Positions 2,959-58,512 of a stretch of DNA of 64,000 nt are shown piece by piece. The position numbers and the translations under genes are program-made. Under the pieces are notes generated by a model. It worked only from the letters and a program-made list of their open reading frames with translations, searched no databases and was not told where the DNA came from. Each line of letters begins with the position of its first letter. Position 1 is the stretch's first letter. The stretch lies in the IMG/VR virus record IMGVR_UViG_2706794662_000007, one strand, 5' to 3'. The stretch is from a virus (lineage: Duplodnaviria > Heunggongvirae > Uroviricota > Caudoviricetes).

Positions 2959-4897
2959 TTACTTAACCTGGTGGCCAGGTTTAGCACCAGCATCCGGGCT
3001 TAACAGGAAGATATCTTTCCCGCCAGGACCGGCAGCCATCACCATGCCTTCAGAGATACCGAAGCGCATTTTACGTGGTGCCAGGTTAGCCACCATAATG
3101 GTGTGACGACCAATCAGTGCCTGTGGATCTGGATAAGCGGAACGGATGCCTGAGAAGACATTACGCTTTTCACCACCGAGATCCAGCGTCAGGCGAAGCA
3201 GTTTGTCAGAACCTTCGACAAACTCCGCGTTTTCAATCAGCGCCACACGCAGGTCAACTTTGGCGAAGTCGTCAAAGGTGATGGTTTCCTGAATCGGTTC
3301 GTCAGCCAGTGGGCCAGTTACCGGTGCAGCTGTGGCTTTCACTTCTTCTTTGGATGCTTCCACCAGTGCTTCCACCTGTTTCATATCGATACGGTTATAC
3401 AGTGCCTTGAACGGATTCACTTTATGGCCCAGAAGCGGTTGCTGGATACCATCCCAGGTCAGTTCTGTATTCAGGAATGCTTCTGCACGTTCAGTCAGTT
3501 TCGGCAGTACCGGTTTCAGGTACGTCATCAGCACGCGGAACAGGTTAATGCCCATAGAGCAAATCGCCTGCAGATCTGCATCGCGACCTTCCTGCTTCGC
3601 CACCACCCACGGAGCCTGTTCATCGACATAGCGATTAGCCAGGTCAGCCAATGCCATGATTTCACGGATAGCTTTACCAAATTCGCGGCTTTCCCATGCT
3701 TCGCCAATCACTTCAGCGGCATCAGTAAAGGTTTTGTACAGTTGCGGGTCAGCCAGTTCGCTTGTCAGCACGCCGTCAAAACGCTTGTTGATAAAGCCTG
3801 CATTACGGGAGGCCAGGTTAACCACTTTGTTCACGATATCGGCATTCACGCGCTGAACGAAATCTTCCAGGTTGAGATCGATATCATCAATGCGCGAAGA
3901 GAGTTTCGCAGTGTAGTAGTAACGCAGGCTGTCAGCGTCAAAATGATTCAGCCAGGTGCTGGCTTTAATAAAGGTGCCGCGAGACTTGGACATCTTCGCG
4001 CCGTTCACCGTCACATAGCCGTGAACAAACAGGTTGGTCGGCTTGCGGAAGTTGCTGCCTTCCAGCATGGCAGGCCAGAACAGACTGTGGAAGTAAACGA
4101 TATCTTTGCCGATGAAGTGGTACAGCTCGGCGGTGGAGTCTTTCTTCCAGTATTCGTCGAAGCTTACGCTGTCGCCGCGCTTGTCGCACAGATTCTTGAA
4201 AGAACCCATGTAGCCAATCGGCGCGTCCAGCCAGACGTAGAAATATTTGCCCGGCGCGTTCGNNNNNNNNNNNNNNNNNNNNNNNNNNNNNNNNNNNNNN
4301 NNNNNNNNNNNNNNNNNNNNNNNNNNNNNNNNNNNNNNNNNNNNNNNNNNNNNNNNNNNNNNNNNNNNNNNNNNNNNNNNNNNNNNNNNNNNNNNNNNNN
4401 NNNNNNNNNNNNNNNNNNNNNNNNNNNNNNNNNNNNNNNNNNNNNNNNNNNNNNNNNNNNNNNNNNNNNNNNNNNNNNNNNNNNNNNNNNNNNNNNNNNN
4501 NNNNNNNNNNNNNNNNNNNNNNNNNNNNNNNNNNNNNNNNNNNNNNNNNNNNNNNNNNNNNNNNNNNNNNNNNNNNNNNNNNNNNNNNNNNCTCTTCGCT
4601 GTGCGTCGAGTGATAGTTGTCATAGCTGATGTTAAAGCCTGCGAAATCAGTCTGATGTTCCTGACTCATTTCGCCAATCATCTGTTCCGGTGTGATACCA
4701 AGCTGCTGTGCTTTCAGCATGATTGGCGTACCGTGGGCATCGTCGGCACAGATGAAATTAACCTCGTGGCCGCGCATTCGCTGGTAACGAACCCAGACAT
4801 CAGCCTGGATGTGCTCCAGCATATGGCCGAGGTGGATTGAGCCGTTAGCGTACGGCAGCGCGCACGTCACCAGAATTTTCTTCGCGACTTGGGTCAT
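2959..4897 (-). CDS. metG: methionyl-tRNA synthetase (interrupted by N-run 4263-4591)
   Basis: N-terminus [29 protein letters not shown] (HIGH motif) and C-terminus ...GAKPGHQVK match enterobacterial MetG as recalled; KMSKS present; ~140 residues hidden in the gap. Confidence 0.95.
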
Positions 4898-5054
4898 AGT
4901 AGGCATTACTTCTTTGTAGTGAAAAGGGGCTTGATAGTAACAAAATGGCCTTATGTCTGCCATGTGATAACAGCATTTCTCATAAATGATTAAATGTCGT
5001 AGCTGGAGTACACTACAAGGCGACAATTGCGCAAATTAAAATAAAGGAGACGGG

Positions 5055-6155
5055 ATGAGCGAGTCCAAATCGCCGGATGCCCTGAGAGCAATGGTAGCCG
5101 GTACGCTGGCTAATTTTCAGCACCCAACCCTGAAACACAACTTGACTACGCTTAAAGCGTTACACCATGTTGCGTTGATGGATGACACACTGCATGTCGA
5201 ACTAATCATGCCTTTCGTGTGGAATAAGCCTTTTGAAGACCTGAAAGAGCAATGTAGTGGTGATCTGCTCCGTATCACTGGCGCAAAGGCTATTGACTGG
5301 AAGCTGTCGTACAACATTGCCACGCTTAAGCGCGTCAAAAACCAACCAGGCATTAATGGCGTTAAGAACATTATCGCCGTCAGCTCAGGCAAGGGCGGCG
5401 TGGGTAAATCCTCCACAGCAGTAAACTTGGCACTGGCTTTGGCTGCTGAAGGTGCGAAAGTTGGTATTTTGGATGCCGATATCTATGGTCCATCAATTCC
5501 AACCATGCTGGGCGCGGAAAACCAACGTCCAACCTCACCGGACGGTACTCACATGGCACCTATCATGTCTCATGGCCTGGCAACCAACTCTATTGGTTAT
5601 CTGGTCACCGATGACAATGCAATGGTGTGGCGTGGACCGATGGCGAGCAAGGCGCTGATGCAGATGTTGCAGGAAACACTGTGGCCTGATCTGGACTATC
5701 TCGTTCTCGATATGCCACCGGGCACTGGTGATATTCAATTGACGCTGGCGCAGAACATTCCTGTAACTGGTGCGGTTGTGGTAACTACGCCGCAAGACAT
5801 CGCGCTGATCGATGCGAAGAAAGGCATTGTGATGTTCGAAAAAGTCGAAGTGCCGGTACTGGGTATCGTTGAAAACATGAGTGTGCATATTTGCAGTAAC
5901 TGCGGTCATCACGAGCCAATTTTTGGCACCGGTGGAGCACAGAAACTGGCCGAGAAATACAACACGCAGTTGTTAGGCCAAATGCCACTTCATATCTCTC
6001 TTCGTGAAGATCTGGATAACGGAACACCAACCGTTATTAGTCGTCCAGATAGCGAATTTACGGCTATTTATCGTGACCTCGCAGATCGCGTTGCTGCCCA
6101 AATGTATTGGCAAGGTGAAGTAATACCTGGCGAAATCGCATTCCGCGCAGTGTGA
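5055..6155 (+). CDS. apbC: Fe-S cluster carrier ATPase ApbC/Mrp
   Basis: 366 aa, P-loop GKGGVGKSS, CxxC near C-terminus, near-identical to E. coli Mrp as recalled; divergent from metG as on the chromosome. Confidence 0.95.
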   Translation: MSESKSPDALRAMVAGTLANFQHPTLKHNLTTLKALHHVALMDDTLHVELIMPFVWNKPFEDLKEQCSGDLLRITGAKAIDWKLSYNIATLKRVKNQPGINGVKNIIAVSSGKGGVGKSSTAVNLALALAAEGAKVGILDADIYGPSIPTMLGAENQRPTSPDGTHMAPIMSHGLATNSIGYLVTDDNAMVWRGPMASKALMQMLQETLWPDLDYLVLDMPPGTGDIQLTLAQNIPVTGAVVVTTPQDIALIDAKKGIVMFEKVEVPVLGIVENMSVHICSNCGHHEPIFGTGGAQKLAEKYNTQLLGQMPLHISLREDLDNGTPTVISRPDSEFTAIYRDLADRVAAQMYWQGEVIPGEIAFRAV

Positions 6156-6180
6156 TAAAAAGGCGGTGCATTGCACCGCC
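6156..6180 (-). terminator. terminator of the UmuD'-like gene, abutting the apbC stop codon
   Basis: hairpin GGCGGTGCA/TGCACCGCC followed by T-run in minus sense. Confidence 0.6.
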
Positions 6181-6192
6181 TAATCAGTTCTC

Positions 6193-6582
6193 CTACATCA
6201 CAGGACAATCATCAAACTCGCCACTTCTTGCGTCGTTGATAATGTGAGTGATCACACCAAACACGGCATTGCTGCCCGTGCATCCATCGTCATCCTTTGG
6301 CAATGCTTCCTTCTTACCGGTTCTTAAATCCTCCAGATGCTGACGTGGAGACTTCCGGTATCTTTTTACGCGATATTCCCCATCCAGAGCGCATACAAGC
6401 AGAGAACCATCAACCGGGGTAAGTGAGGAATCAACCACCAGCAATGCACCCTGTAATATTCCCTCACGATGATGACTATCAGCTGCTCTCATGAAGTAGG
6501 TCGCTGAAGGATGTCTAATTATCTGCTGATCAAGAGAAATACGGCTCTCAGCATAATCCGCCGCAGGAGAAGGGAAGCCCAT
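6193..6582 (-). CDS. UmuD'-like S24 peptidase-family protein (P1 HumD-like, natively lacking the UmuD N-terminal arm)
   Basis: starts MGFPSPAADYAESRISLDQQIIRHPSATYF, matching the UmuD region just after its RecA-mediated cleavage site; Ser and Lys positions retained; in-frame stop 4 codons upstream of ATG. Confidence 0.8.
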   Translation of the reverse strand: MGFPSPAADYAESRISLDQQIIRHPSATYFMRAADSHHREGILQGALLVVDSSLTPVDGSLLVCALDGEYRVKRYRKSPRQHLEDLRTGKKEALPKDDDGCTGSNAVFGVITHIINDARSGEFDDCPVM

Positions 6583-42093: not shown

Positions 42094-43184
42094 TTACTCT
42101 TCTACTGACTCGGTGGGGTTGTCTTTTGCTCTTCGGTCGTCGATTGCCTGCAAAGCCGCAATGATTTCAGCCAGTGGCTTCTCCCGATACATCTCGACGA
42201 TCTGCGATTTGGTGTATTTCTTGTCACCAATTTCAACTCGCCCGCTGGCGTTCTTTGGCAGGTATCCTTCTTCCAGCATGTACTCGACGAGCGATTCGAT
42301 AACGTCGAGGCCACGAGTAGGATCGAAGTAGAATTTCCAGGTGCATTTGCCATACGGTGGTGCAACTTTGTTTTTGATGCATTCTGCGCCTACGTCCTGG
42401 CCGATCTTCTCTTTACCATCCTTCATCACCGATGCACCAAGACGGATACGTACAGAAGCGTAGAACTTCGGTGAATCTCCACCTGGAGACGTAGTAGGGT
42501 CGCCAAACATTACACCGATTTTTGTGCGAACCTGATTCAAGAAGATGATGCAGGCGTTGTATTTGCGTGCCCACAAAGCCAGAGTAGGGAAGTTCGCACT
42601 TGTCGCACGAGCCAGTGCCGTATTGTCGTTCATGTTTAGCTGATCTTTGTCTTTGGCAGTGCCTTCAGCCATCTTTTCGAACTTCTCGGCTTTGGAGTTC
42701 GGAACCATAGACGCAAGTGAGTCAGCCACGATACAGATAGGTGCTGATTCAGGAATAAGCTCTTCATCACGTACCAATTTAAGAATTGTGCCGATCAACT
42801 CTACAGAGTCTTCGAAGGTATCAGGCTGCTTGTATACCCACTGACCGTCATCCTCATCTGCATTCAAACCATTGGCTACAGCCAGGCCAACGTCAAAACT
42901 GTTCTCATGATCGAGGANNNNNNNNNNNNNNNNNNNNNNNNNNNNNNNNNNNNNNNNNNNNNNNNNNNNNNNNNNNNNNNNNNNNNNNNNNNNNNNNNNN
43001 NNNNNNNNNNNNNNNNNNNNNNNNNNNNNNNNNNNNNNNNNNNNNNNNNNNNNNNNNNNNNNNNNNNNNNNNNNNNNNNNNNNNNNNNNNNNNNNNNNNN
43101 NNNNNNNNNNNNNNNNNNNNNNNNNNNNNNNNNNNNNNNNNNNNNNNNNNNNNNNNNNNNNNNNNNNNNNNNNNNTTTTGCCAT
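42094..43184 (-). CDS. RecA-like recombinase (interrupted by N-run 42918-43175)
   Basis: IIFLNQVRTKIGVMFGDPTTSPGG...FYASVRIRL matches the RecA core; ATG at 43184 with AAGGAG SD. Confidence 0.75.
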
Positions 43185-43186
43185 GA

Positions 43187-43459
43187 TCAGGCTCCTTTTG
43201 TTTCGTTGATTCGTTTTAAAGCGGCGGATTCGTCGAATACAATCGCATCGTGGTTAAGGAGTCTGGATACACGAGCGAGGATTTTTACGACCTGCTCGCT
43301 GACTAATCCAAACTCGCGATCTGTCGCTTTCATTCCGGCAGCGCCTAGAATTGACGGCAGTGCGATGACAGCGTACTCACCGTGATAAAAGACAATCTCT
43401 TTTGCCAGTTGGGTAGGGGTGGTTGTAGCGCCATTAATAATCGATTTAAGCATTAGCAA
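43187..43459 (-). CDS. hypothetical protein
   Basis: 90-aa ORF upstream of RecA-like gene. Confidence 0.35.
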   Translation of the reverse strand: MLMLKSIINGATTTPTQLAKEIVFYHGEYAVIALPSILGAAGMKATDREFGLVSEQVVKILARVSRLLNHDAIVFDESAALKRINETKGA

Positions 43460-44448
43460 TACCTTTCGAATGGAAGAACAAACACTTCAAGGTCTTCAAG
43501 GAACGAACGGAAATTCAGCTCGTAGCACAGTTGCTCGAATGCTTTCACGTCACGATTGCCTTTGATTGTTTCGATTTCGGTAGGCGGAAACTTCGTCTCA
43601 ATCAGGTTCATTAGCGTGATGTTTCTCTTGAACGCTTCGAGCATTCGACAGCCTGTTTTCTCGTTGAAGGCATTCTTCGCTAGTTTGTTGAAGGCGGTCT
43701 TATGGCGTCCTTTGTCAACCACGATTGAGCCGTCGTTGATGCCGCGTACCATCGTTGCGACACTTCCCCATTCATGCAGCAGCTCTTTCGCACCGCCAGC
43801 ACCAATGCCACCAACACCGCTAATGTTGTCCGATTTATCGCCTTGTAATGCTTTTGCTTCCAAAAATGCGCGAGGAGTAGCGAATCCTGTCAGCTCCGCA
43901 AATTGCTCAAAATTAACCTGCTTGTTTTTGGCGTCTTCGCGCAGGCTTACCCAGCTTACGTTTTCGCGAACTAACTGAAGCCAGTCGCTATCGCCTGTTA
44001 ACAGATAGATGTGTTCAACAATTGGCTGCGGTGCAATGCTGGCTACCAGCAGCCCGGCCAGATCATCCGCTTCTGCATCTTTTGCAATGAGTTGGGTAAC
44101 TCCAAGCGCGGTCATCATTTTGAGGATGTATGGCTTCTGGATAGCAAAGCCTTCCTTCATCTTTTTCATATCAGGATCGTCGTCGCGATTTGCTTTGTAG
44201 TCCGGGTAAAAGTCGCGACGCTTGTCACTAAATCCATCCCAAAGAATCATAGGTCGGGCATGGAGGATGGAGGCATAACGACGGACGTTCTTAACAAAGC
44301 CGAAAGCAGCCTGTACTTCCATTTCGCCGTTGTGCAATTTGTCAGATTGTTGGTGGTAATAACCCAGGCTATTGCCATCTACGAAGAGATAATTCACCGG
44401 TACATTCCTTCCAAAAAGTAAGGCGTCCGTAGACGCCTTACTGGTCAC
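43453..44448 (-). CDS. 5-prime to 3-prime exonuclease / flap endonuclease
   Basis: DGNSL, AKDAEADDLAG, LLTGDSDWLQL, GDKSDNISGVGGIG motifs of Pol I-type 5-prime nuclease domain. Confidence 0.8.
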   Translation of the reverse strand: MTSKASTDALLFGRNVPVNYLFVDGNSLGYYHQQSDKLHNGEMEVQAAFGFVKNVRRYASILHARPMILWDGFSDKRRDFYPDYKANRDDDPDMKKMKEGFAIQKPYILKMMTALGVTQLIAKDAEADDLAGLLVASIAPQPIVEHIYLLTGDSDWLQLVRENVSWVSLREDAKNKQVNFEQFAELTGFATPRAFLEAKALQGDKSDNISGVGGIGAGGAKELLHEWGSVATMVRGINDGSIVVDKGRHKTAFNKLAKNAFNEKTGCRMLEAFKRNITLMNLIETKFPPTEIETIKGNRDVKAFEQLCYELNFRSFLEDLEVFVLPFERYC

Positions 44449-44457
44449 GTAATGGGA

Positions 44458-45486
44458 TTACAGAGAGTCCAGCTCTCTCAGTAGGTCATCCAGACCTTCA
44501 TCTTCCGTCGCAGATGCGGCTGCTACAGATGTCGCTGCGACTGCTTCAGACTCTTTGACTGATACGGCAACGGCAGCGGAACTTGCCTCTGGTTTAAATT
44601 CAGTTTCAACGGCACGGAGGATTTCTTCATCAACCAGACTGGTTGGTTCAGAAGCCGGTGTGTGCGCGGTTGCTACAGCCGTCGCTCCTTCTGTATGACC
44701 AGTGACAGAGCCAAATCCAGGTAGTGCCGCAGCCGATGTTTTCGCGGTTGAGGAAATTGCTGGTGCAGATGCTGCGGCAGTTGGTGCAGCGATGCCAATC
44801 AGACGACCCATAGTGCGAACTGTCGACAGAAGACGAGTTTCATCAGCCTGATTTGCGTATGCGATCAGATCATGCTGGGTGTTCCAGAATTTATCTTCGA
44901 TATCGCCTTTGTAGACTTTACGCTTAGGCGAGACGTCATATTTGGTATCGCGACCAGAGCCAGTACGTTTAATCAGGAATGCGTAGCCTTCCTCTTTGCT
45001 CAGTGGATTGCCGATATCATCAGCGATGTCTTCGGTGATTGCTTTGCAGATATCATCGAATACAGTAGACGGCAGCTCGATTAATTGGCATTTCTCAGCA
45101 TCTGCGAAATCCTCACGAGCAGAAAGAATGCCGTTGACCAGGTAGCGAGGAGTGGCACGCATTTGACCGATGCGTTCTTCCATTGCTTTGTTACCCTTGT
45201 GACGAGCGCGACCTTCCATCACCATTTCGCATAGCTGACAAGCGCGACCGTGAGTATGTTGCTCACAAATATAAGCGTTGGTTGCTTCTTTACCTTCCTC
45301 GTTCTGATACTTAACGTAGTGCATACCGAAAGTCTGGAAGAACTTACCGTTTGGGTCGTCTTTATTCGGGAAGATGCGGATATAGTTGACGCCGTCTTTT
45401 AAGCGAGTCAGATCAACGTTGTTGCCACGTTTGGCGGCAATGTCTTCACGAGTTTTGTTAAGCAAATCAAGTAATGTCTTAGACAT
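44458..45486 (-). CDS. single-stranded DNA-binding protein, T4 gp32-like
   Basis: IRIFPNKDDPNG and Zn-site-like YICEQHTHGRACQLC resemble gp32 as recalled; acidic C-terminal tail. Confidence 0.6.
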   Translation of the reverse strand: MSKTLLDLLNKTREDIAAKRGNNVDLTRLKDGVNYIRIFPNKDDPNGKFFQTFGMHYVKYQNEEGKEATNAYICEQHTHGRACQLCEMVMEGRARHKGNKAMEERIGQMRATPRYLVNGILSAREDFADAEKCQLIELPSTVFDDICKAITEDIADDIGNPLSKEEGYAFLIKRTGSGRDTKYDVSPKRKVYKGDIEDKFWNTQHDLIAYANQADETRLLSTVRTMGRLIGIAAPTAAASAPAISSTAKTSAAALPGFGSVTGHTEGATAVATAHTPASEPTSLVDEEILRAVETEFKPEASSAAVAVSVKESEAVAATSVAAASATEDEGLDDLLRELDSL

Positions 45487-46160: not shown

Positions 46161-49100
46161 TCACGACTTAATAGTTTCTGCTACGTCGGCTAATATCGCT
46201 TCTAGTCGTTCTCCCTCTTCAGGTCTGAAGTAAAGAATGTTGGGGTTAAACCCGTAAAAGACTGTAACGTCAAGGTCTGGAAGATACTCCTTCCTACCGA
46301 CTAAATCGGATGGCTTGTTTTTGTTGTTAAACAATGCCGTTGCCCGACTGCCACACGTCAGCACATAGGTCGGACGTACCAGATTGATCTCTTCACGCAT
46401 AAAGTCGGTGAACTGGCCGATCTCGTCTTTGGTGTAGTCCTTTTCTTTGTCTTTCACCTTTTTGCAAACGCCTGTGACATAGAGATCGCCCATGCGCAAA
46501 TCTCCAGCCGTCAACAGCTTGGCCTTAAAATCGTCGTATCCGTTCTCCATGAAGTAACCGGTTCGAGCATCATTGCCGTTTGCATTGTCCAGAATGATCA
46601 TGATTTTCGGCTTAATACCAATGCTGGGGCGGATTAGTTCATCACCTAAGCCCATTTCAGCCGCCATCCGCGTCATAAGTACGTTAATTTCAGCCGAACG
46701 TTTGGAGTTCATCTCAAACGGACGTGAGGCTTTAACTGCGTCTATGACAAGATTTCCCATCAATTCCGCTTGGTCGCGGAGACGTTCTGGATCAGTTGCT
46801 GGCAGACTGCCTGGCTCGATGGATGCAAACGCCCCTACTTTTTGCAGTGATTCGCGCACTCGACTATTACAGGCACGTTTCTCGACAGCTTCTTCGAATT
46901 GCGCCAGTGACTCGAATTTGCCGCCAACTTTTTCTCGCGCTCTCATGATGGCCTGGCAGCCATTCTCAGAACAACCTTTCACAGCAGAGAAGGGCGCATA
47001 CAGCACCTGGCTGCCATCTTCAAGCGTGCGGATCTCAATTCGGTTAGATGACACGTTAACGTCTGGTGGCAATACGCGAATACCATAGGTCAGCGCATCT
47101 TTAACCAGCCCCTGGTGTTTATCTTCGCCAAGAATAGTGAGAGCAGCAGCGAAAAACTCTGCGGGATAATGAGTTTTCAACCACATAGATTGATAACTGA
47201 TTAAGGAGTAAGCAACAGAGTGTGATTTGTTGAACTGGTAGGCACCATTCTTTTCGAATGCGGTCCAGATCTCCTTCGCTTTCATCTCTGATAGCCCTGG
47301 ATGTGACGCTGTAACGCGTACTGCGTTTATAGGTAGTTTTGCGCCGTACTCAAGTGCCTCTTCGACAGTTTTCATAGTTCCGTCTTCGCATTTAAAATGT
47401 TCCGCACGGTGAATGCGCTGTGTAGTGCCATCTTCCAGCTCAACGTCTATCCAGCCAGCTTGAGCCTGAACGATGAACTTCTCGCCCATGCTCTTCATTT
47501 TTTCCATGTCTTTTTTGCCTATCGCTTTACGAACGCCGTCAGCTTCAGCCATTGTGAAGCCAGCAAGCAATCGAGTCGCGTTCATCGTCTGTTCCTGATA
47601 GAGAATCACGCCATTTGTTTCTGCGGTAAGTTCATCAAGAACGGGGTGTAATGATTCCGGCGTCATAAAGCCTTTGGCGACAGAAACATAATCATCCAAC
47701 ATGCCTGACTGAATTGGTCCCGGCCGGAAGAGCGCAGTCGTGGCGACAACGGTTTTAAAGCTCATTGGCTCAATGCCACCGCCCAGATCTTTAAGCAGCT
47801 TGCGCATTGGGCCTGATTCAAGCTGGAAAACACCTTGAGTGTACCCAGCAGCAAAACCATCCAGCACCTTGCGATCTTCAAGAGAAATGGTATCAAGATT
47901 GATATCTTCACCTGTGTTCTCTTTAATGTAGCGTTTTGCACTATCGAGCAAATCGAGAGTTGCCAGGCCAAGCACGTCCAGCTTAATTAGGCCCATAGCC
48001 TCGCAGTAACGCTTGTCAAATGCGATACAACGCGCGTCACCACGGCGCTCAACCGGTGTACGTTCTGTCAGAGGAACACCTGCTACGATCATCCCTGCCG
48101 CATGTCTACCAAAGCCACGCATAAGGCTTTGTAACTTGCAGGCTGCATTGAATGCATCAGGATATTTTGTTGCGTATTTGTCGAGACTTGCCAGTTGTTC
48201 GCGCAGCTCTTCCAATGGAAGGCTATCATCCTCGACGTTCTTCAGTTCTTTTGATACCGCCATATCTGCGGACTCCACACCATAAATACGAGCGGTATCA
48301 CGTAGTGCAGAGGCTGCGCCCAGGTAGGTGAAGTTCGGAATGCCTGCAACGTAATCTTCGCCGTAGCGTTCATTCAGATACTCGATCACTTCATGGCGAC
48401 GTGCCTGGCTGAAGTCCAAATCCGCATCCGGCAAGTCGAGACGCTCAGGGTTGATGAAACGTTCAAACAGAAGACCGTGACGGATTGGGTCGACGTTGGT
48501 TATGCCTATGCACCATGCCACCAGAGATCCAGCGGAGGAACCACGACCAGGCCCGACAGGAATGCCAGTTTCACGACTATGATTCATCAGATCGCGCACC
48601 ATCAGGAAGTAACCACAGAATCCCAGGCGAGTCAGCGTGTCCATTTCGTACTTTAGCCGCTCAACATAAACCCTGTTCTCAGAAGCAGGTGGTGTGTATC
48701 CAAACTCTTTTGTGGTAAGACGTTTACGCAGCCCTGCAACAGCCAGTTTCATCAGCGTTGCAGGTTCGTCGTCTGCCATCTTGGGCAGTGCTGGTGGCAA
48801 TTCATGCCAGCGCCATGTGCAGGCATCGATAATGGTATCCTGCGTTGTTGAGGCCATTGCAGCTGTTACCGGCACATCCATGCGAACGGAGAAGGCTTTA
48901 AGCGCCTCAAGGAGATGGCGGCGACCATTGACGGCGTTATCTCGCTGGTGGGGGATACGCAGACGATGCGGCTGGTCGATTTTTATGTTGTTCGTAACCA
49001 TGTGCGCAATGTCTTTAATGTCTGCATCGTCGATCGATTCGTAATAAGCGGGATAGAACGCCACTGGCTCTATTTTCAATGCGCTGGCGACTTTCATCGC

Positions 49101-49679
49101 CCGGACGTTAATCTGGTCGTAGAATGGGGTAGGGTGCGGATAAACCACACTATAGAAGTTGTCTTTTCCACCCGGTGTAATCAGTGTGCTTATGATTTTT
49201 GCAAAATCGTTGCGTTGGAACACGCTACCGATGTCGGAAGTGAGCAGGATGATGTTGCCTTTGGCATATGTAGAAACCAACTGTTCGAGCGAGAGACGCG
49301 GTACAAAGTAGAACTGTTCTCGTGTGTTGGCCACCGTCATTAGTTCGCAGATGTCGCGATATCCTTGCTCATTTTTAATTAGAGCGGTAAACGAGTAGTT
49401 ACGTCCTCGCTCTAATGATTCCATACATCCCTTAGATTCTTTAGCAAGTTTATCCCGGTGCTCGTATGTGGGATCATCAACGATGTTTAGTTTCACACCA
49501 CAAATAACCGCCATGTCGTCACCAGCGGCACGTTGTAGTGGAATAACACTCGCAATATTCATGCTATCTGCTGAAATTACAGCGGTGTAGCCAGCTTCTC
49601 TGGCAATCTTCACCGCGTTTTCTGCTTTTAGAGCCGACTCCCCAAGTGAGAAGTCAGTTCGAACCATCAGTGCCTTCAT
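46161..49679 (-). CDS. dnaE: DNA polymerase III alpha-like (DnaE-family) replicative polymerase
   Basis: 1172 aa; N-terminal PHP domain; GFCGYFLMVRDLMNHSRETGIPVGPGRGSSAGSLVAWCIGITNVDPIRHGLLFERFINPER matches the DnaE palm region. Confidence 0.9.
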   Translation of the reverse strand: MKALMVRTDFSLGESALKAENAVKIAREAGYTAVISADSMNIASVIPLQRAAGDDMAVICGVKLNIVDDPTYEHRDKLAKESKGCMESLERGRNYSFTALIKNEQGYRDICELMTVANTREQFYFVPRLSLEQLVSTYAKGNIILLTSDIGSVFQRNDFAKIISTLITPGGKDNFYSVVYPHPTPFYDQINVRAMKVASALKIEPVAFYPAYYESIDDADIKDIAHMVTNNIKIDQPHRLRIPHQRDNAVNGRRHLLEALKAFSVRMDVPVTAAMASTTQDTIIDACTWRWHELPPALPKMADDEPATLMKLAVAGLRKRLTTKEFGYTPPASENRVYVERLKYEMDTLTRLGFCGYFLMVRDLMNHSRETGIPVGPGRGSSAGSLVAWCIGITNVDPIRHGLLFERFINPERLDLPDADLDFSQARRHEVIEYLNERYGEDYVAGIPNFTYLGAASALRDTARIYGVESADMAVSKELKNVEDDSLPLEELREQLASLDKYATKYPDAFNAACKLQSLMRGFGRHAAGMIVAGVPLTERTPVERRGDARCIAFDKRYCEAMGLIKLDVLGLATLDLLDSAKRYIKENTGEDINLDTISLEDRKVLDGFAAGYTQGVFQLESGPMRKLLKDLGGGIEPMSFKTVVATTALFRPGPIQSGMLDDYVSVAKGFMTPESLHPVLDELTAETNGVILYQEQTMNATRLLAGFTMAEADGVRKAIGKKDMEKMKSMGEKFIVQAQAGWIDVELEDGTTQRIHRAEHFKCEDGTMKTVEEALEYGAKLPINAVRVTASHPGLSEMKAKEIWTAFEKNGAYQFNKSHSVAYSLISYQSMWLKTHYPAEFFAAALTILGEDKHQGLVKDALTYGIRVLPPDVNVSSNRIEIRTLEDGSQVLYAPFSAVKGCSENGCQAIMRAREKVGGKFESLAQFEEAVEKRACNSRVRESLQKVGAFASIEPGSLPATDPERLRDQAELMGNLVIDAVKASRPFEMNSKRSAEINVLMTRMAAEMGLGDELIRPSIGIKPKIMIILDNANGNDARTGYFMENGYDDFKAKLLTAGDLRMGDLYVTGVCKKVKDKEKDYTKDEIGQFTDFMREEINLVRPTYVLTCGSRATALFNNKNKPSDLVGRKEYLPDLDVTVFYGFNPNILYFRPEEGERLEAILADVAETIKS

Positions 49680-49863
49680 GTGTTTTTACCTTTCTGGTTT
49701 TTTTGATTTTGTCATTTGGGAAGCCTACGAACTTCCCATGCATCGAAATCGCAACTTCTTTTGCTGATTGGTGACAATAAGGCTTGTCTGGACACTCCAG
49801 ACAAGCCTTACCAGTTTCAGAAGCAGCGATAAGAGAGCCGAAACATCCTTTACGCACGATCAA
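49654..49863 (-). CDS. hypothetical small Cys-rich protein
   Basis: 69-aa ORF overlapping the polymerase start. Confidence 0.25.
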   Translation of the reverse strand: MIVRKGCFGSLIAASETGKACLECPDKPYCHQSAKEVAISMHGKFVGFPNDKIKKTRKVKTHEGTDGSN

Positions 49864-51095
49864 CCAAATATTTTTTGAACAACTTCACGAGCCGCTTGTG
49901 CAGAAGCTGAAGGGAGTTTGTTAATGAAAGAACGCTCAATACCTGTCACAAAATCGCCTCGCATCATTCCAATCTTGGCCGACAACAAAAGCTCACGAGG
50001 CCCAATCGGTTGGCTGATATTGTGTTCTTCGTATCCATCGCGAACGATACCGGCAAACTTAACCATCTTTTCAGCGTATTCATCCACGATGCCTGCATTT
50101 GTCAACATGTTGATCTCTGCGTCTTTGCTCATGTATTTCACATTCGAAACGATGCCAAAACGCGAAAAGTTCGCGGCGTTCTGGATGTTTGTACCCTGGT
50201 ACAAGCCGGTTTCATCACCAGATCCGTTCGTGTTGCCAGTGCCAATGAAAGCAAACCGTTCATGCGGAGTAATGCGACGCCATTCTGGAGTTGCCTCTTT
50301 GATGACCAACGCTTCACCTTCCAGCACTGGCTGATACACGCCAAGAATTTGTGGAAACGCAAAGTCGTATTCATCCGCGAGGTAAACCCAGCCATGCTTC
50401 ATTGCGAGCGCAAGCAAGCCAGGTTCGAAATACGTAGAGCCATCACGCGCCAGAATTTGCCCCGTAACATGTGCCTCTTCCATTGATGCTGTATGTTGGG
50501 CACGGATCAACGGACGATTGAGCAAAGCACATAGCTGTGTAGGCAATGACGATTTGCCTGTTCCTGCATGACCCCACAAATAGCCAGGTATGCCAAGTTC
50601 AAGCATCATGAAAATATCTTTGATCAGTTCGAAGTCGCCATATACGTAGCCTTTCTTCACTTCGGGAACGAACTCTGGATACGGCGTATTGACGTTGACG
50701 CTAACCATGAGCGGCGTCCCACGTTTTGTTCCGAGTTCTTCCACCGTTACGTTTAGCAGTTCGTGAGCTGCGACCAGATCTGTCTTGTACTCAACTGTGC
50801 CTGTGTAGCCAGGGCTACTGGTCAAGCCAGAAGATTTGGCCATTTCGCTTTTTTGCTCGGCACGTTTAGCTTGAATTGCATCAAGTGCCTTTTTCGATAG
50901 CGTTGGCTCATCTGGAAACTGTGTTGTGTACATTTTCAGTACGGTGTCAGGATCGGCATCTTTTACTGACTCAGGAATGCCCTCGCAATTACCATTGGCT
51001 ACATGGGACTTAAAATAGTGAAATGATTTTCCGCACCACTTGCAAACAAGGTAATCAGAAGGATTTTTTTCATTTTGCAGTGCAGTAGTAGTCAT
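49860..51095 (-). CDS. cobS: CobS-like (MoxR-type) AAA+ ATPase
   Basis: Walker A GHAGTGKS, Walker B-like YLADEYD; N-terminal Zn-ribbon-like CKWCGK. Confidence 0.65.
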   Translation of the reverse strand: MTTTALQNEKNPSDYLVCKWCGKSFHYFKSHVANGNCEGIPESVKDADPDTVLKMYTTQFPDEPTLSKKALDAIQAKRAEQKSEMAKSSGLTSSPGYTGTVEYKTDLVAAHELLNVTVEELGTKRGTPLMVSVNVNTPYPEFVPEVKKGYVYGDFELIKDIFMMLELGIPGYLWGHAGTGKSSLPTQLCALLNRPLIRAQHTASMEEAHVTGQILARDGSTYFEPGLLALAMKHGWVYLADEYDFAFPQILGVYQPVLEGEALVIKEATPEWRRITPHERFAFIGTGNTNGSGDETGLYQGTNIQNAANFSRFGIVSNVKYMSKDAEINMLTNAGIVDEYAEKMVKFAGIVRDGYEEHNISQPIGPRELLLSAKIGMMRGDFVTGIERSFINKLPSASAQAAREVVQKIFG

Positions 51096-51190
51096 GCGTT
51101 TTTCCTTTGTTTTCTAATGAGCTTTCAACTTCTTATATAAATATACCATCAAATATCGTAAGTGATTACTTATCATTAAGGCTATTCTAA

Positions 51191-53299
51191 TCACTTCAAA
51201 ATGATACGAGATAGTTCAGTAACTACAGATGAACCAAGACTATCAACGCTCGTTACCAGGGCATGATTTGAGTAAAATCTCTCCGGTGCGTCAGTCATGA
51301 TGCCAATTGCCATCAAATCAATGTCAGTCTGCGTTTCAATTTGCTTCGCAACCGAACGCAAATGAGCGTCAAAACCTCTCCCAACAGCCCACGGCGCGCC
51401 ATCACTCAGAACAAGCATGATCTTCCTGTCCTCCATGCGACCGGAAAATAACGATGCAAGGCTGGCTATGCTTTCACCATCCACGTTATTAAGAAGTGGG
51501 AATGTGTAGCCTACGCACCCCATACGTGAGCGAACTTCGCGAGAACTTACCTTTTCATTCCAATTTTTGATGATAGGTAGCATTAAAGATTCAAAGCGAG
51601 AGAACTCATACTTGACAGCCTTAAGTTCTCCTGCCGCCATATGACTACCAAATGTAGTGAAGCCGGTGATAATGTTGGGAACATTTATTCGATCAAGGGC
51701 ATCGGCGATGGTATATGAACTTGCAAGAGCCAATTGTATCGTTATACCACTCATTGAACCTGATAAATCAATCACTTGTTGAACACAGGCGTTAACGGCT
51801 TTAGATTCTTCTTTTTTACGAAACACGCGATCATCATTCATTGCTAATCTGTAGATACTAGAACCATGAATGCGCCCCCGACGCTGGCCCGGTATAAACT
51901 GAACTCTGTTTCTGCTTGCTATTGCTCGCTCCAGGTCTTTTGCCAGCGTCGACGAAACACCTGACGAAAGATGCTTTTCAATATATTTGTCGAAGAGCTG
52001 GTTGCCTTCAGGAACGATGCGATAGCGGCTGATTGGATATCCTCCTAAATCAATATCGGAGAATGTTTTAATAAGCCGTTTGATATGGGCTTCTGCCTGA
52101 TCAATCGAGCCGATGAAGTCGTATGAGCGATTGTATGGCCTGTATTCGCTTTTCGAGCTTTCTGTTAACTCGCTTTTAATCGTTTCGGATAGAGCATCTT
52201 CTGTCATGCCTCCGACTTCATCTTCTATGCTATCCAGCTCCTCTAAAGCCTCTTCCAGACTCATTTTTGACGGAGTTGGAATATCTGAAGAGCCGTCTTC
52301 TGTCGTTTTTCTTTTTTCGTGGTCAGCGGTTAATGATTCTGACGCCGCGTTATCAGAAGCATCAGAATCTGATACCTCTTTATCATTTTCTGTATCATCG
52401 AATATTGTTTCTGATGATTCAGAATTATCTGAATCATCACTGTCGTTATTATCATGTTTGTGCTTACTGTGTGATTCTGATTCGATAGATTTGTGATTAT
52501 CTAACGCTGAGGGTGTCTCATGATCTTCGTTGTCTTCATTGTTTTCTCCAGAGGCATCCGTCTGGTCAGCGTCTGAAGGATCGGAAGTTTTTCCCGGAGC
52601 TGACTCCTTACCTTTGCTTTCACTTTCAGTGTCTTTGAGGATCTTAGCTATGGTCGCAGCCACCTTTACACAATCCTCGGTGCAAGACATGTTACGCACG
52701 GCCACATCGATACCATGTTCTTTTAATAATGAAATTGGTTTCTCAATGACAGGCCAGTATTCATCCATGAAATCTACGAACGGTGCTTGGCCATCCCAGG
52801 CTCTTACAACCGGACAGAGAAAGAAGTTTAGAAAAAGCGCGCGCTGATCTTTGCCACAATAAGCAATAGCCTCTGAAGCCTTTGGTTTAAAGACTTTTTC
52901 GATTATAAGGCGCTGAGTTGCCATCAGATTACGTCTCGTTCCGTTAAAGACCTGCCCCATTTTTCGCTCGATGAACACGTCTTCTAATGCATTCCATAGT
53001 GACCGGGAAGGAACGCGTCCTTTTTCTCTCATTTTGTTGGAGACACGAATATCGGTAAACAAAATGTGAGCAACCTCATGATCGAGAAATCCGCGCACAG
53101 CATTCATCAATGCCGGTGTTGCGTTATCCGGAATTGATGGGATGTTTACGAGAATTGGCTCTCCATCATCGTTATAGCGTACATAAGCGTCGTCTCCTCG
53201 TTCTGCAACAGGGATGTTTTTACCTGAAAGGAGAGCGACTACTCGTTTTACACTGTCACGGAAGTCCTGAACCTCTTTGATGGAACGTTTTTTAGACAT
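51191..53299 (-). CDS. cobT: CobT-like von Willebrand factor A domain protein
   Basis: 702 aa; MIDAS motif DLSGSMSG; long acidic D/S/E-rich linker; adjacent to AAA+ partner. Confidence 0.6.
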   Translation of the reverse strand: MSKKRSIKEVQDFRDSVKRVVALLSGKNIPVAERGDDAYVRYNDDGEPILVNIPSIPDNATPALMNAVRGFLDHEVAHILFTDIRVSNKMREKGRVPSRSLWNALEDVFIERKMGQVFNGTRRNLMATQRLIIEKVFKPKASEAIAYCGKDQRALFLNFFLCPVVRAWDGQAPFVDFMDEYWPVIEKPISLLKEHGIDVAVRNMSCTEDCVKVAATIAKILKDTESESKGKESAPGKTSDPSDADQTDASGENNEDNEDHETPSALDNHKSIESESHSKHKHDNNDSDDSDNSESSETIFDDTENDKEVSDSDASDNAASESLTADHEKRKTTEDGSSDIPTPSKMSLEEALEELDSIEDEVGGMTEDALSETIKSELTESSKSEYRPYNRSYDFIGSIDQAEAHIKRLIKTFSDIDLGGYPISRYRIVPEGNQLFDKYIEKHLSSGVSSTLAKDLERAIASRNRVQFIPGQRRGRIHGSSIYRLAMNDDRVFRKKEESKAVNACVQQVIDLSGSMSGITIQLALASSYTIADALDRINVPNIITGFTTFGSHMAAGELKAVKYEFSRFESLMLPIIKNWNEKVSSREVRSRMGCVGYTFPLLNNVDGESIASLASLFSGRMEDRKIMLVLSDGAPWAVGRGFDAHLRSVAKQIETQTDIDLMAIGIMTDAPERFYSNHALVTSVDSLGSSVVTELSRIILK

Positions 53300-53397
53300 G
53301 GCTAATCCTTTGTTATGAAAACAAATTATTTACTAGTGTGTTTAATGTAGCACTGCGCGAACAGGGAACTAAGCCATTCGCGCAGGTAGCAGAGGGG

Positions 53398-53610
53398 TTA
53401 ACAGGTTCTGACGGCTAAAGAGCCAGAGCCGGTATTGATAAGCGTGAAGCGTTTGTTATTAAGTAGGAATATAAAGGCTGTTGCGTCATGCATACCAACC
53501 TGAATCTGCTCATTTGGTAATTCGGTGAGAATGTCAGCTACACATTCATCAGCTAATTTTTCAACGTGTCCGATCTCAAGAGTGATTAGGCTGGAAATAG
53601 TTGTTTTCAT
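53398..53610 (-). CDS. hypothetical small protein
   Basis: 70-aa ORF divergent from XRE regulator across an AT-rich 250-bp region. Confidence 0.35.
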   Translation of the reverse strand: MKTTISSLITLEIGHVEKLADECVADILTELPNEQIQVGMHDATAFIFLLNNKRFTLINTGSGSLAVRTC

Positions 53611-53857
53611 TCAATCAATCCATTCTAACTTAAAATATGGTAGGGAGTACTATTAAATCTTATATCATAATTGAACTTATCTATATCATATCTGAGTTAG
53701 TTTTGTTACATGTTATTAGTCGTTTTTCTCCATTAATGAATGCTGATTGGTTAATATTTGTGCCTGTAGAAAAAATGATTATATCTTTACAACCCTAACC
53801 TTTGATGTAATATCGGTAAGCACTTACCAGAGAGTTTAACGCGCAAAGGTCGCAATA

Positions 53858-54244
53858 ATGTCTGACAAAAACATTGAATTTATAGAAAGTCGCTATGCTG
53901 CTTTTATCGCAGGGCTGATTGAATCCTCACCTATGAGTCAGGCCCAAATAGCCAGACTTATTGGTTATAAAAATGCCAACAACCTTTCTTTAATTAAAAG
54001 TGGTAAAATTCCTTTGCCTATCGATAAGGTTCGTCCGCTGGCGTTGGCGCTGGGTATTGAGCCAAGTCGTCTTATGATGATGGTGCTGGAAGAACGCCAA
54101 CCTGAACTCGCAGCATTTTTATACAAAGAAGGTACCGCTCCTCTTAACGAGGACGAAAAACAGGTTCTTGCTGCATATAACGAGCGATTCGGTAAAGAGA
54201 AAGGCGCATCACAAAAGGTTGTTGAGGCCATAAAGTCTCTATGA
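53858..54244 (+). CDS. XRE-family helix-turn-helix transcriptional regulator
   Basis: MSQAQIARLIGYKNANNLSLIKSGKIPLP resembles HTH_XRE; only clear plus-strand gene in this region. Confidence 0.6.
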   Translation: MSDKNIEFIESRYAAFIAGLIESSPMSQAQIARLIGYKNANNLSLIKSGKIPLPIDKVRPLALALGIEPSRLMMMVLEERQPELAAFLYKEGTAPLNEDEKQVLAAYNERFGKEKGASQKVVEAIKSL

Positions 54245-57688: not shown

Positions 57689-57775
57689 TGGCGGAGAGTA
57701 ATGGAATCGAACCATCATCGCTTGCGCAATGGGACGGTTTTCAAGACCGCTTGAGCACCATGCTCCCTACTCTCC
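57689..57775 (-). tRNA. tRNA-Ser (anticodon UGA), type II with long variable arm
   Basis: 7-bp acceptor stem GGAGAGT/ACTCTCC, anticodon loop CTTGAAA, T-loop TTCGATT, encoded CCA; short D-loop. Confidence 0.65.
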
Positions 57776-57939
57776 AGTCGTTGTGGTTACCGGTACTGAT
57801 CTCCGGCTTAGCGACCCCGGCTACTGACTGCATTGCAGTGTGTGAACTCGCCTCGTGTGTCGCTGGGGCATTTCTTTCCGCGCATCAGTCTGCGCATCAA
57901 CCACAACGGAAAGAGCATTCACGTCTCGCGTGCCACCAC

Positions 57940-58035
57940 GAATGGCAACTCAGAGAGTCGAACTCTGAAAATGTTCTTACCTGTTGTGCGCTCCGTTTCG
58001 TGGAGCTAACGGCGGGTGAACAGGCCGCACCAGGT
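57940..58035 (-). pseudogene. tRNA-like remnant (T-arm intact, no pairing acceptor stem)
   Basis: perfect T-arm CAGAG-TTCGACT-CTCTG but no complementary acceptor stem found. Confidence 0.3.
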
Positions 58036-58265
58036 TGGACATATTTCAGCGTTATGCTGTTGCAAGAGAGCCAAATTGTGATGGTCGGCGCTGATCTCCG
58101 ACACAGGGTTGTAGCAAGCCCCGCAAAGCGCGCACTACTGTAGTTGCGGCACATCAGCCTGTGCATTCACCACAATGTTGAGAACACTGGTTGTCACGCG
58201 GCAACGCAACATTTATTCATAGATTGGGATATGACCCCGTTACGCCAATGTTCTCAATATTATGT

Positions 58266-58341
58266 TGGTGCCGATTAACGGGATCGAACCGATGACCATT
58301 CGCTTACAAAGCGACTGCTCTACCAACTGAGCTAAATCGGC
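58266..58341 (-). tRNA. tRNA-Thr (anticodon UGU)
   Basis: acceptor GCCGATT/AATCGGC, D-arm TAGCTCAGTTGGTAGAGCA, anticodon loop TTTGTAA, T-loop TTCGATC, encoded CCA. Confidence 0.8.
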
Positions 58342-58345
58342 AATT

Positions 58346-58432
58346 TGGTGGGGAGTGATAGAGTCGAACCACCCGAGTCGCAATGACAGTAGATTTACAG
58401 TCTACCCCGCTACCTCTACGGACTAACTCCCC
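58346..58432 (-). tRNA. tRNA-Tyr (anticodon GUA), type II
   Basis: acceptor GGGGAGT/ACTCCCC, anticodon arm GTAGA-CTGTAAA-TCTAC, long variable arm, encoded CCA. Confidence 0.8.
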
Positions 58433-58437
58433 TAAAT

Positions 58438-58512
58438 TGGCGATGGTGGGTGGATTCGAACCACCGACCAATTGGTTAACAGCCAACTGCTCTACCGCTG
58501 AGCTACACCATC
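58438..58512 (-). tRNA. tRNA-Asn (anticodon GUU)
   Basis: perfect 7-bp acceptor GATGGTG/CACCATC, anticodon loop CTGTTAA, T-arm GGTGG-TTCGAAT-CCACC, encoded CCA; differs from E. coli tRNA-Asn as recalled. Confidence 0.85.

Follow-up and report, generated by a model that had tools for sequence, protein, structure and literature searches.

The subject of this work is a pair of adjacent genes (positions 49860-53299, minus strand) in a 64,000-nucleotide (nt) stretch of DNA from the tailed-virus record IMGVR_UViG_2706794662_000007 (IMG/VR; Caudoviricetes), the whole of which is hereafter called the window. The products, a MoxR-type AAA+ ATPase and a von Willebrand factor A (vWA) protein, appear to share ancestry with the CobS and CobT subunits of cobaltochelatase. 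According to the best reading of the pair, to which a probability of about 0.55 is given, they form a two-part machine that is kin to the chelatase without being one, and that acts early on a client linked to DNA replication or to takeover of the host. This reading is carried by an intact HExxH motif in the CobT-like protein, by the distance of both proteins from true chelatase subunits and by a conserved place beside the gene for a DnaE-type DNA polymerase.

An earlier note, made from the sequence alone, had described at this location a MoxR-type ATPase with Walker A and B motifs followed by a vWA protein of 702 amino acids (aa) with a MIDAS motif (metal-ion-dependent adhesion site) and an acidic linker. 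The description of the domains stands, with Pfam and PHROG matches far beyond chance, and both the AAA+ and the vWA domain were recovered by profile searches. However, ATPase first and vWA protein second is the order on the plus strand, and transcription from the minus strand gives the vWA protein first. The account was also incomplete, as the HExxH metallopeptidase motif and an apparent Ros/MucR-type zinc finger had been overlooked.

Shigella sonnei plasmids of ~108 kb carry positions 49600-53700 at 100% identity; for E. coli plasmids and for phages PhiR41_1, CMS-2020a and Cyrano the identity is 97-99%, and for Salmonella phage SSU5 it is ~75%. This identifies the window as an SSU5-type phage-plasmid. 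Among 5426 complete E. coli genomes, 219 (~4%) have the pair, in every case plasmid-borne, and so do 455 plasmid records, which come from Escherichia, Enterobacter, Yersinia, Salmonella, Citrobacter and other hosts. It is under purifying selection in these enterobacterial hosts, with ratios of non-synonymous to synonymous substitution (dN/dS) of 0.04-0.11 for the CobS-like ATPase and 0.24 for the CobT-like protein; for distant pairs, in which dS was saturated and dN was ~0.25, the ratio was not computable.

A peptidase signature in the CobT-like protein

The CobT-like open reading frame (ORF; 51191..53299, minus strand; PHROG 1576, E 6e-300) encodes 702 aa, of which residues 9-294 match Pfam CobT (E 1.5e-26) and residues 492-701 match CobT_C (E 3e-81). 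Residues 1-225 (52625..53299, minus strand) make up an N-domain with an M48/gluzincin-like fold. In an AlphaFold2 model (mean predicted local distance difference test score, pLDDT, 92.3) it is made up of a single helix, a sheet of three strands and a bundle of helices, and a matching topology is seen in Brucella CobT_N, for which the authors of the crystal structure drew a comparison with peptidase family M48C (bioRxiv 10.64898/2026.07.21.739949). The HExxH motif, HEVAH, lies at residues 74-78 (53066..53080, minus strand), and E106, D107 and E111 follow downstream (at ~52967-52984). Like a gluzincin, the N-domain hence has an HExxH motif and, on a helix further along, a downstream Glu within a zincin fold; in an M48-like fold, these two elements together mark a putative peptidase.

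When the CobT-like protein was searched against 1.84 billion cluster representatives (50% clusters), 5055 relatives were obtained at E <= 1e-3. Among the best 150 of these, HExxH stands at about residue 70 in 144 of the 147 full-length sequences (144/150 if all are counted), and it is found in 72 of 74 environmental CobT-like copies. Residues D73, H74, E75, H78, E106, D107, E111, G120, N124 and R166 are invariant in an alignment of 31 sequences. The M48-like fold is common to the window protein and to genuine CobT, but the latter has DSMALR or DAFALR (Rhizobium and Cereibacter) at the position aligned with HExxH. In these two sequences, the canonical CobT N-domain appears to be a degenerate peptidase domain.

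The link between the N-domain and canonical CobT_N is drawn from the Pfam CobT match, a weak local match of a hidden Markov model (HMM; E 2.8e-5, in a search of four sequences only) and the shared topology and fold; a profile of the N-domain did not recover Brucella CobT_N from the PDB sequence set even at E 10. The best match of this profile in the PDB sequence set was the anti-CRISPR protein AcrIIA26 (9zq6_B; E 0.006), aligned with residues ~94-138 of the CobT-like protein (~52886-53020), a stretch that covers the conserved N-x-x-E-D-x-F-I-E helix with the putative third zinc ligand. The likeness may be due to chance, or AcrIIA26 may derive from a domain of this type.

Cyanophage cobT was considered by Liu et al. 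to be 'mistakenly annotated as a peptidase' (PMC8651126). The 'peptidase' of cyanophage P-RSM4, the N-domain of which is detected by the family HMM at E 9e-10 and by pairwise BLASTP with the window protein at E 3e-4, has HEVGH at residue 57, an LEDARIEK helix and DWSGS at residue 417. These features suggest that the cyanophage label mirrors a real motif.

Beyond the N-domain, the protein resembles CobT in having a C-terminal vWA domain with MIDAS residues after an acidic linker. The linker (residues 226-400; 52100..52624, minus strand) is a serine-rich sequence of low complexity, with 15% D, 15% E and 19% S and a net charge of -37. It is followed by a pre-vWA segment (residues 401-500; 51800..52099, minus strand), which aligns with the part of Brucella CobT that holds the 'shaft' (Q373-R413), as found by phmmer (query residues 440-697 against residues 347-616 of 9uka_G), and which by analogy may function as a shaft. 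The vWA domain (residues 501-702; 51194..51799, minus strand) carries D511-x-S513-x-S515 (51755-51769), aligned to D422/S424/S426 of the Brucella protein, and S632-D633-G. Both DxSxS and SDGxP are conserved in all 146 full-length cluster representatives of the family. The closest solved match of the CobT-like protein is Brucella CobT (E 2e-16), in the C-terminal part only.

The CobS-like ATPase and its putative zinc finger

The CobS-like ORF (49860..51095, minus strand; PHROG 249, E 7e-107) encodes an ATPase of 411 aa. Its AAA+ core (residues 141-411; 49863..50675, minus strand) includes an AAA_5 domain (residues 173-293; Pfam, E 2e-15) with Walker A GHAGTGKS at 175-182 (50550-50573) and Walker B VYLADE at 237-242 (50370-50384). 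In 28 homologues there is no variation at sensor-1 N288/N290, at the Arg finger R312 or at sensor-2 R367. The catalytic residues, including D241-E242, align with G71-S78, D141-E142, N186, R210 and R271 of Brucella CobS (9ujv), which is the closest solved match (E 2.4e-26, residues 142-411), so that Walker A, the Walker B D-E, the sensor-1 Asn, the Arg finger and the sensor-2 Arg expected of a CobS are all in place. Further matches in the PDB were CbbQ (E 2.8e-7) and NorQ (E 1e-3).

Canonical CobS has ~330 residues, and the window ATPase is alignable to it only from residue ~141. In the first ~75 residues, the ATPase and its homologues share the motif C18-x2-C21-x9-H31-x3-6-[H/C], which suggests a Ros/MucR-type zinc-finger domain (residues ~14-75; 50871..51056, minus strand) with C18, C21, H31 and then, in this lineage, C37 as likely ligands. 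Pfam ROS_MUCR was the top match in six of eight N-terminal fragments of homologues (E 4e-6 to 0.02), two of them above the gathering score of 25.4 bits, and a profile of the finger domain retrieved the Ros zinc-finger structure 2jsp at E 3.8e-5, the next match being at 0.08. The C-x2-C-x9-H-x3-4-H spacing and the 'HL...H...[ST].eeY' helix of the Ros/MucR domain (2jsp, PF05443) align with the finger family of the ATPases. Among 72 environmental CobS-like ORFs the motif was recognised in 68, ten of which have Asp instead of the second Cys, a variation known within the Ros/MucR family. The finger of the window ATPase is itself divergent, with an insertion, a likely Cys as fourth ligand and no direct Pfam match. 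Unlike the small transcription regulators of the Ros/MucR family, the finger is here fused to the N-terminus of an AAA+ ATPase. Ros/MucR fingers bind DNA, and the finger of the ATPase may do the same.

The 'CobS' of Roseobacter phage CRP-810 (L155, 1827-3680) is a protein of 617 aa with an N-terminal extension of ~350 residues, and its gene adjoins an endonuclease V gene.

Distance from the cobaltochelatase

The ATPase scored 88.9 bits with the CobS equivalog model of NCBIfam (TIGR01650; cut-off 558.55), in residues 141-411 only. The CobT-like protein scored 67.8 bits with the CobT equivalog model (TIGR01651; cut-off 759.05), in residues 295-697 only, and its N-domain was unmatched. The controls, CobS and CobT from a Rhizobium cobS-cobT locus, passed with 651.9 and 1110.7 bits, respectively, CobT over its full length. 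The versions from Pseudomonas phage nickie, P-RSM4, Vibrio podophage ICP2 and CRP-810 were in the range of 68-168 bits (CobS) and 0-179 bits (CobT). As judged by sequence, neither window protein is a true cobaltochelatase subunit. The pair differs from CobNST in scores that are about a tenth of those of the equivalogs, in the intact HExxH, in the gene order T then S, in the 140-residue N-terminal extension of the ATPase with its zinc finger and in the location of the genes within a replication operon.

No CobN-like product is annotated among the 121 coding sequences of the closest plasmid (NZ_CP045933), and its ribonucleotide reductase (RNR) is the class Ia nrdAB. Class Ia RNR does not depend on vitamin B12. 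De novo synthesis of the corrin ring and a CobN are not known from E. coli and Shigella. Both genes are nonetheless conserved by purifying selection in these hosts. The proposal in the literature that CobST of viruses works with a host CobN (PMC8651126) cannot explain this element. The B12 label of the pair is thus probably wrong, and the view taken in the earlier note, that cobalamin synthesis is not the role of the pair, is upheld by the missed cut-offs, the absence of an annotated CobN and the class of the RNR.

In phage Cyrano, the gene at 43137-45242 (OV696614) and its neighbour are labelled 'dimethylbenzimidazole phosphoribosyltransferase' and 'cobalamin synthetase', which are CobT and CobS in the Salmonella nomenclature and are unrelated enzymes. 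A role in the late pathway, as these labels would imply, was rejected, since the products are an AAA+ ATPase and a vWA protein; the cobS and cobT names of Salmonella and Pseudomonas apparently clash here.

Association with replication genes

In the order of transcription, the leftward operon consists of genes for a 70-aa product (53398..53610, minus strand; PHROG 2627, E 3e-39), the CobT-like protein, the CobS-like ATPase, a 69-aa product (49654..49863, minus strand; PHROG 6337, E 1e-44; no match in a Pfam scan), the DnaE-type DNA polymerase III alpha subunit (46161..49679, minus strand; 1172 aa; Pfam PHP, DNA_pol3_alpha, finger and HHH_6), a 143-aa protein, weakly UvsY-like by its PHROG match (E 2.6e-4), a gp32-type single-stranded DNA-binding protein and a 5'-3' exonuclease. 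As the earlier note had it, DnaE is the neighbour of the pair. Its gene lies 180 nt downstream of the ATPase gene, and the gap is occupied by the 69-aa ORF, which overlaps at one end with the stop of the CobS-like gene (4 nt) and at the other with the start of dnaE (26 nt). In the closest plasmid, nrdAB and a metallophosphoesterase are encoded near the pair, and the genes for terminase, portal, capsid and tail are grouped apart from it, ~19 to 44 kb away.

Close SSU5-type relatives were all that emerged when viral contigs were first scanned with the window proteins and when homologues were first searched for. Diversity was obtained from the 50%-cluster search, from tblastn of phage records with spread rows, and from a scan led by a distant sequence. 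The pairing of an AAA_5 ATPase gene with a vWA-MIDAS gene, side by side on one strand in the window, was kept in every relative examined. Contigs with an ATPase 45-48% identical to that of the window encode a protein of ~690-744 aa, the ATPase, one or more small ORFs, DnaE, gp32, exonuclease and RecA. The same module, with a CobT-like protein 31-36% identical, is found in Pseudomonas phage nickie and Rhizobium phage RHEph10, where helicase, primase and ligase genes lie upstream. In these two phages and in ~100-kb contigs, the order CobT, CobS, DnaE is thus maintained at 31-46% identity. In a sample of 53 environmental loci with at least 9 kb downstream of CobT, taken from the scan led by the distant family member, CobT, CobS and DnaE were on one strand within 9 kb in all 53, a result that counts as a single observation, of deep conservation, because the loci belong to one lineage of ~100-117-kb phages. 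The gene for the 143-aa UvsY-like protein came next in 45 of the 53. Several distant relatives (L075, 11182-11856; L154, 12819-13454, which is RHEph10) have a gene for a sigma-70 region-2-like sigma factor immediately behind the CobS-like gene and ahead of DnaE, where the window has only the 69-aa ORF.

Related pairs recur among replisome genes in T4-like cyanophages, as cobS (T4-GC150) and 'peptidase' (T4-GC146), and in ICP2, as CobS-like gp42 and CobT-like gp41. These are homologous to the window pair and likewise in the order T then S. In P-RSM4 the order is gp47, gp46, peptidase-vWA, small ORF, cobS, small ORF, gp45 and, further on, gp44 and then gp62, and in ICP2 the pair is located a few genes upstream of the primase, helicase and DNA polymerase. 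The large proteins have HEVGH or HECYH together with DxSxS, and the pairs are annotated as belonging to B12 or porphyrin biosynthesis. The ATPases are ~26-30% identical to that of the window, and the adjoining replicative polymerases are different. Cyanophages account for 434 of the 494 phage records with a cobS match (tblastn).

With regard to timing, cobS of cyanophage P-SSM2 serves as an early-gene marker (PMC6628666). In papers on phage-plasmids (PMC7969092, PMC9928086, bioRxiv 2026.08.19.745698) no functional data on the pair were found. For strain LF82, the pair is not among the genes listed in the phage-plasmid literature as expressed in lysogeny, which is weak evidence.

Proposed mode of action

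In the electron cryomicroscopy structure of CobSTN, the pore of the CobS hexamer grips the shaft segment of CobT, CobT_N docks on the small AAA+ subdomain, and the vWA/MIDAS face together with CobT_N holds the effector CobN; a general motor-adaptor-client logic is stated there for MoxR/vWA pairs (bioRxiv 10.64898/2026.07.21.739949). In the Brucella melitensis proteins (9ujv, 9uka), the Walker A/B, sensor-1, Arg-finger and sensor-2 residues stand at the places that they have in the window ATPase. In addition, the Brucella proteins share with the CobT-like protein the M48-like N-domain, a disordered acidic linker (~90 residues in canonical CobT), the shaft-containing segment and the vWA/MIDAS domain. 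Motor-adaptor mechanics are probably common to CobST and the phage pair, since the ATPase residues, the MIDAS residues and the shaft-aligned region are all kept.

By analogy with the CobST complex, the CobS-like protein would assemble into a hexameric ring, and the CobT-like protein would be its adaptor. The pre-vWA segment would enter the pore of the ring, the N-domain would dock on the small subdomain of the ATPase, and the MIDAS face would grip a client protein, which would be pulled on or remodelled at the expense of ATP. As the N-domain keeps the zincin site, the client or the adaptor itself would probably be cleaved too, and the Ros/MucR-type finger may place the machine on DNA. The pair would be transcribed together with the replication genes from the start of the leftward operon, beside the integrase/regulator region. 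The fixed place in a replication operon, the early timing in cyanophage and the finger of DNA-binding type suggest that the machine would most likely act early, on a protein tied to phage DNA replication or host takeover.

A chaperone-like function in replisome or virion assembly had been proposed in the earlier note. The part that concerns the replisome is consistent with a replication context that is conserved and that recurs in cyanophage and ICP2. The virion part finds no support: the pair lies outside the structural module, next to the integrase/HTH-regulator region, and cobS of P-SSM2 is early. In view of the intact HExxH, which that note had missed, 'chaperone-like' may also be too modest a label.

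Alternative explanations

The standard reading of such genes is an auxiliary metabolic module, in which viral CobS and CobT and a CobN-type subunit of the host raise the level of cobalamin, for example for a B12-dependent RNR. The chance that this holds for the window pair is very small. The closest characterised relatives are indeed the cobaltochelatase subunits, with which the pair shares its architecture from the AAA+ motor to the M48-like N-domain, acidic linker, shaft region and vWA/MIDAS domain, and such a role has been published for archaeal and bacterial viruses (PMC8651126) and for cyanophages (PMC2984593); it would be conceivable in hosts that have CobN but neither CobS nor CobT. Against it stand equivalog scores far under cut-offs that the controls pass, a CobT model that does not match the N-domain, a peptidase site absent from the two genuine CobTs examined, the class Ia RNR of the closest plasmid and its lack of an annotated CobN, a gene order reversed with respect to two canonical cobS-cobT loci, and a zinc finger for which a chelatase offers no rationale. 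The purifying selection in hundreds of enterobacterial plasmids also runs counter to it, given that E. coli and Shigella are established to lack corrin synthesis and CobN. Folding or processing of structural proteins by the pair, as a chaperone or protease of virion assembly, is highly unlikely. This role was proposed for group 2.2 jumbo phages, with the tail development of Acidianus two-tailed virus as precedent (Iyer et al. 2021, PMC7824862), where, from the text of that paper, a MoxR ATPase is likewise paired with a vWA protein that has an N-terminal metallopeptidase domain (ASV44729.1/ASV44728.2) and a zinc finger is unmentioned. An intact HExxH would suit a maturation cleavage. However, the window pair occupies a replication and early context, in an operon beside integrase and regulator genes throughout its lineage and ~19 to 44 kb from the structural genes, the T4-like cyanophage pair lies between gp46/47 and gp45/44 and outside the late genes, and P-SSM2 cobS is treated as early (PMC6628666).

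Maturation of a metal centre, in the manner of NorQ/NorD, CoxD/CoxE or CbbQ/CbbO, is unlikely. The HExxH would then bind or deliver a metal and cut no protein, and possible clients would be the PHP domain of DnaE, the di-iron NrdB or an Mre11-like nuclease. NorQ/NorD, CbbQ/CbbO, CoxD/CoxE and RavA/ViaA likewise place an AAA_5/CbbQ_C-type ATPase beside a vWA-MIDAS partner. As described in the CobSTN paper and as far as is known, the NorQ/NorD-type adaptors have no peptidase domain and their clients are metabolic enzymes, and none of these pairs is known from a viral replication operon. Characterised MoxR/vWA pairs mostly mature metal sites or remodel enzymes (bioRxiv 10.64898/2026.07.21.739949), metalloenzymes (DnaE with its PHP domain, nrdAB, the metallophosphoesterase) are encoded near the window pair, and the cyanophage pair comes after the SbcD/SbcC-like gp47/gp46. 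Yet no candidate client is adjacent in all three lineages, the polymerases differ between them (DnaE, a T4-like replisome and, in ICP2, one whose annotation likens it to the polymerase of Ralstonia phage RSB1), and HExxH with a downstream Glu in an M48-like fold points to a peptidase. A protease of host takeover or counter-defence, which would seize a host protein (for instance a defence factor or a nucleoid-bound silencer) and break it down, and would differ from the proposed machine in the client only, is distinctly unlikely. The early position adjoining lysogeny-switch genes, the early timing in cyanophage and the AcrIIA26 match would fit, but the likenesses to ArdC and AcrIIA26 are weak and may be generic or due to chance. 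In addition, PADLOC gave no defence-related match, with zero matches for the ATPase and the two small ORFs and a 14-bit match to DrmE in the low-complexity linker of the CobT-like protein as the sole match. Counter-defence genes are also usually variable and accessory, whereas this pair is an invariant core in a fixed position. That the pair is a DNA-tethered AAA+ metalloprotease, which strips or cuts DNA-bound proteins to let the phage replisome start or advance, is decidedly unlikely. It would be the viral counterpart of eukaryotic p97/Cdc48 with SPRTN/Wss1, and nucleoid silencers, stalled complexes and protein-DNA adducts would be candidate targets; canonical CobT would be a relative that lost the peptidase site and came to serve CobN as an adaptor, and the B12 label as an auxiliary metabolic gene would be wrong.

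Several points weigh against the preferred reading, that of an early motor-adaptor machine with a replication- or takeover-linked client. Outside the main lineage, which itself counts once in the environmental synteny, replisome neighbours are found in two lineages only, and in CRP-810 and Gordonia phage Woes the pair, in the order S then T, is situated among early or unknown genes without such neighbours. Clustering with replication genes can reflect mere shared early timing. The HExxH is lost in phage nickie (DSEISK), and similar changes are seen in 3 of the 147 representatives; because a few lineages are without the motif, catalysis is probably not indispensable everywhere in the family. 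The ATPases of cyanophage, ICP2 and CRP-810 have other N-terminal extensions without the CxxC finger, and a DNA-binding extension as a general trait is not supported, because these extensions have zero Pfam matches. In a promoter and terminator scan, sites were fewer than in shuffled controls and the operon boundaries were not defined. The statement on corrin synthesis and CobN in E. coli and Shigella has a textbook basis only. No experiment on any phage CobS or CobT was found, and the papers found hold only hypotheses on such pairs (PMC8651126, PMC7824862, PMC2984593), in agreement with the earlier note, by which they have no established role in phages.

Other features of the window

The CobT operon is separated by an AT-rich intergenic region of 247 bp (53611-53857) from a divergent helix-turn-helix (HTH) regulator gene (53858..54244, plus strand) beside the integrase gene, as derived from the sequence and from the annotation of the plasmid identical over 49600-53700. 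The regulator gene and the CobT operon may be linked in their regulation. The intergenic region contains repeated GATATGATATA and TTATGATATA elements that are operator-like in look. Four tRNA genes (Ser-TGA, Thr-TGT, Tyr-GTA and Asn-GTT; 57689-58512, minus strand) are located between a DUF6645/SASA esterase gene and the ligase gene, and together with the integrase and HTH regulator genes they break up the block of replication genes.

The C-terminal ~145 residues of DnaE (about 1027-1171) have a PHROG match of their own, to a family without a known function (phrog_13175, E 2e-95). The DnaE of related contigs and of phage RHEph10 bears a uracil-DNA-glycosylase-like domain (PF03167).

In the closest plasmid, positions 75423-79141 (window ~2959-6582) are annotated with metG (methionine-tRNA ligase), the Fe-S carrier gene apbC and an S24 (LexA-like) peptidase gene, a stretch with the look of cargo taken from a host. 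Two overlapping ORFs (2959-4623 and 3965-5026) make up the metG region of the window, and metG may be disrupted or different from that in the plasmid record. Masked runs of N at ~42.9-43.2 kb and ~61.6-61.9 kb interrupt the ORF translations on both strands, and genes there are partly unreadable.

Implications

The pair itself was known before, as were the NCBI name of the large protein, 'cobaltochelatase CobT-related protein', the jumbo-phage architecture (PMC7824862) and the spread of cobST in tailed viruses (PMC8651126). The intact HExxH of the phage proteins, set against the degenerate site of canonical CobT, and the Ros/MucR-type finger fused to the ATPase were described in no paper found and appear to be new, as does the quantified linkage to DnaE and to the replisome genes of unrelated phages.

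The gene cobS belongs to the core genes of T4-like cyanophages and is routinely counted as an auxiliary metabolic gene for B12 without a demonstrated function. If the DNA-tethered protease were real, the B12 label that cobS has been given, in virome surveys as in several hundred cyanophage genomes, would be wrong. If the pair is the early, replication-linked AAA+/protease machine of the preferred reading, a widespread annotation and the ecological inferences derived from it would need revision, and a core function would become testable in a large clade of phages and phage-plasmids that encode DnaE. It would also provide a concrete model for the origin of the CobT adaptor, from or alongside an active peptidase-vWA protein.

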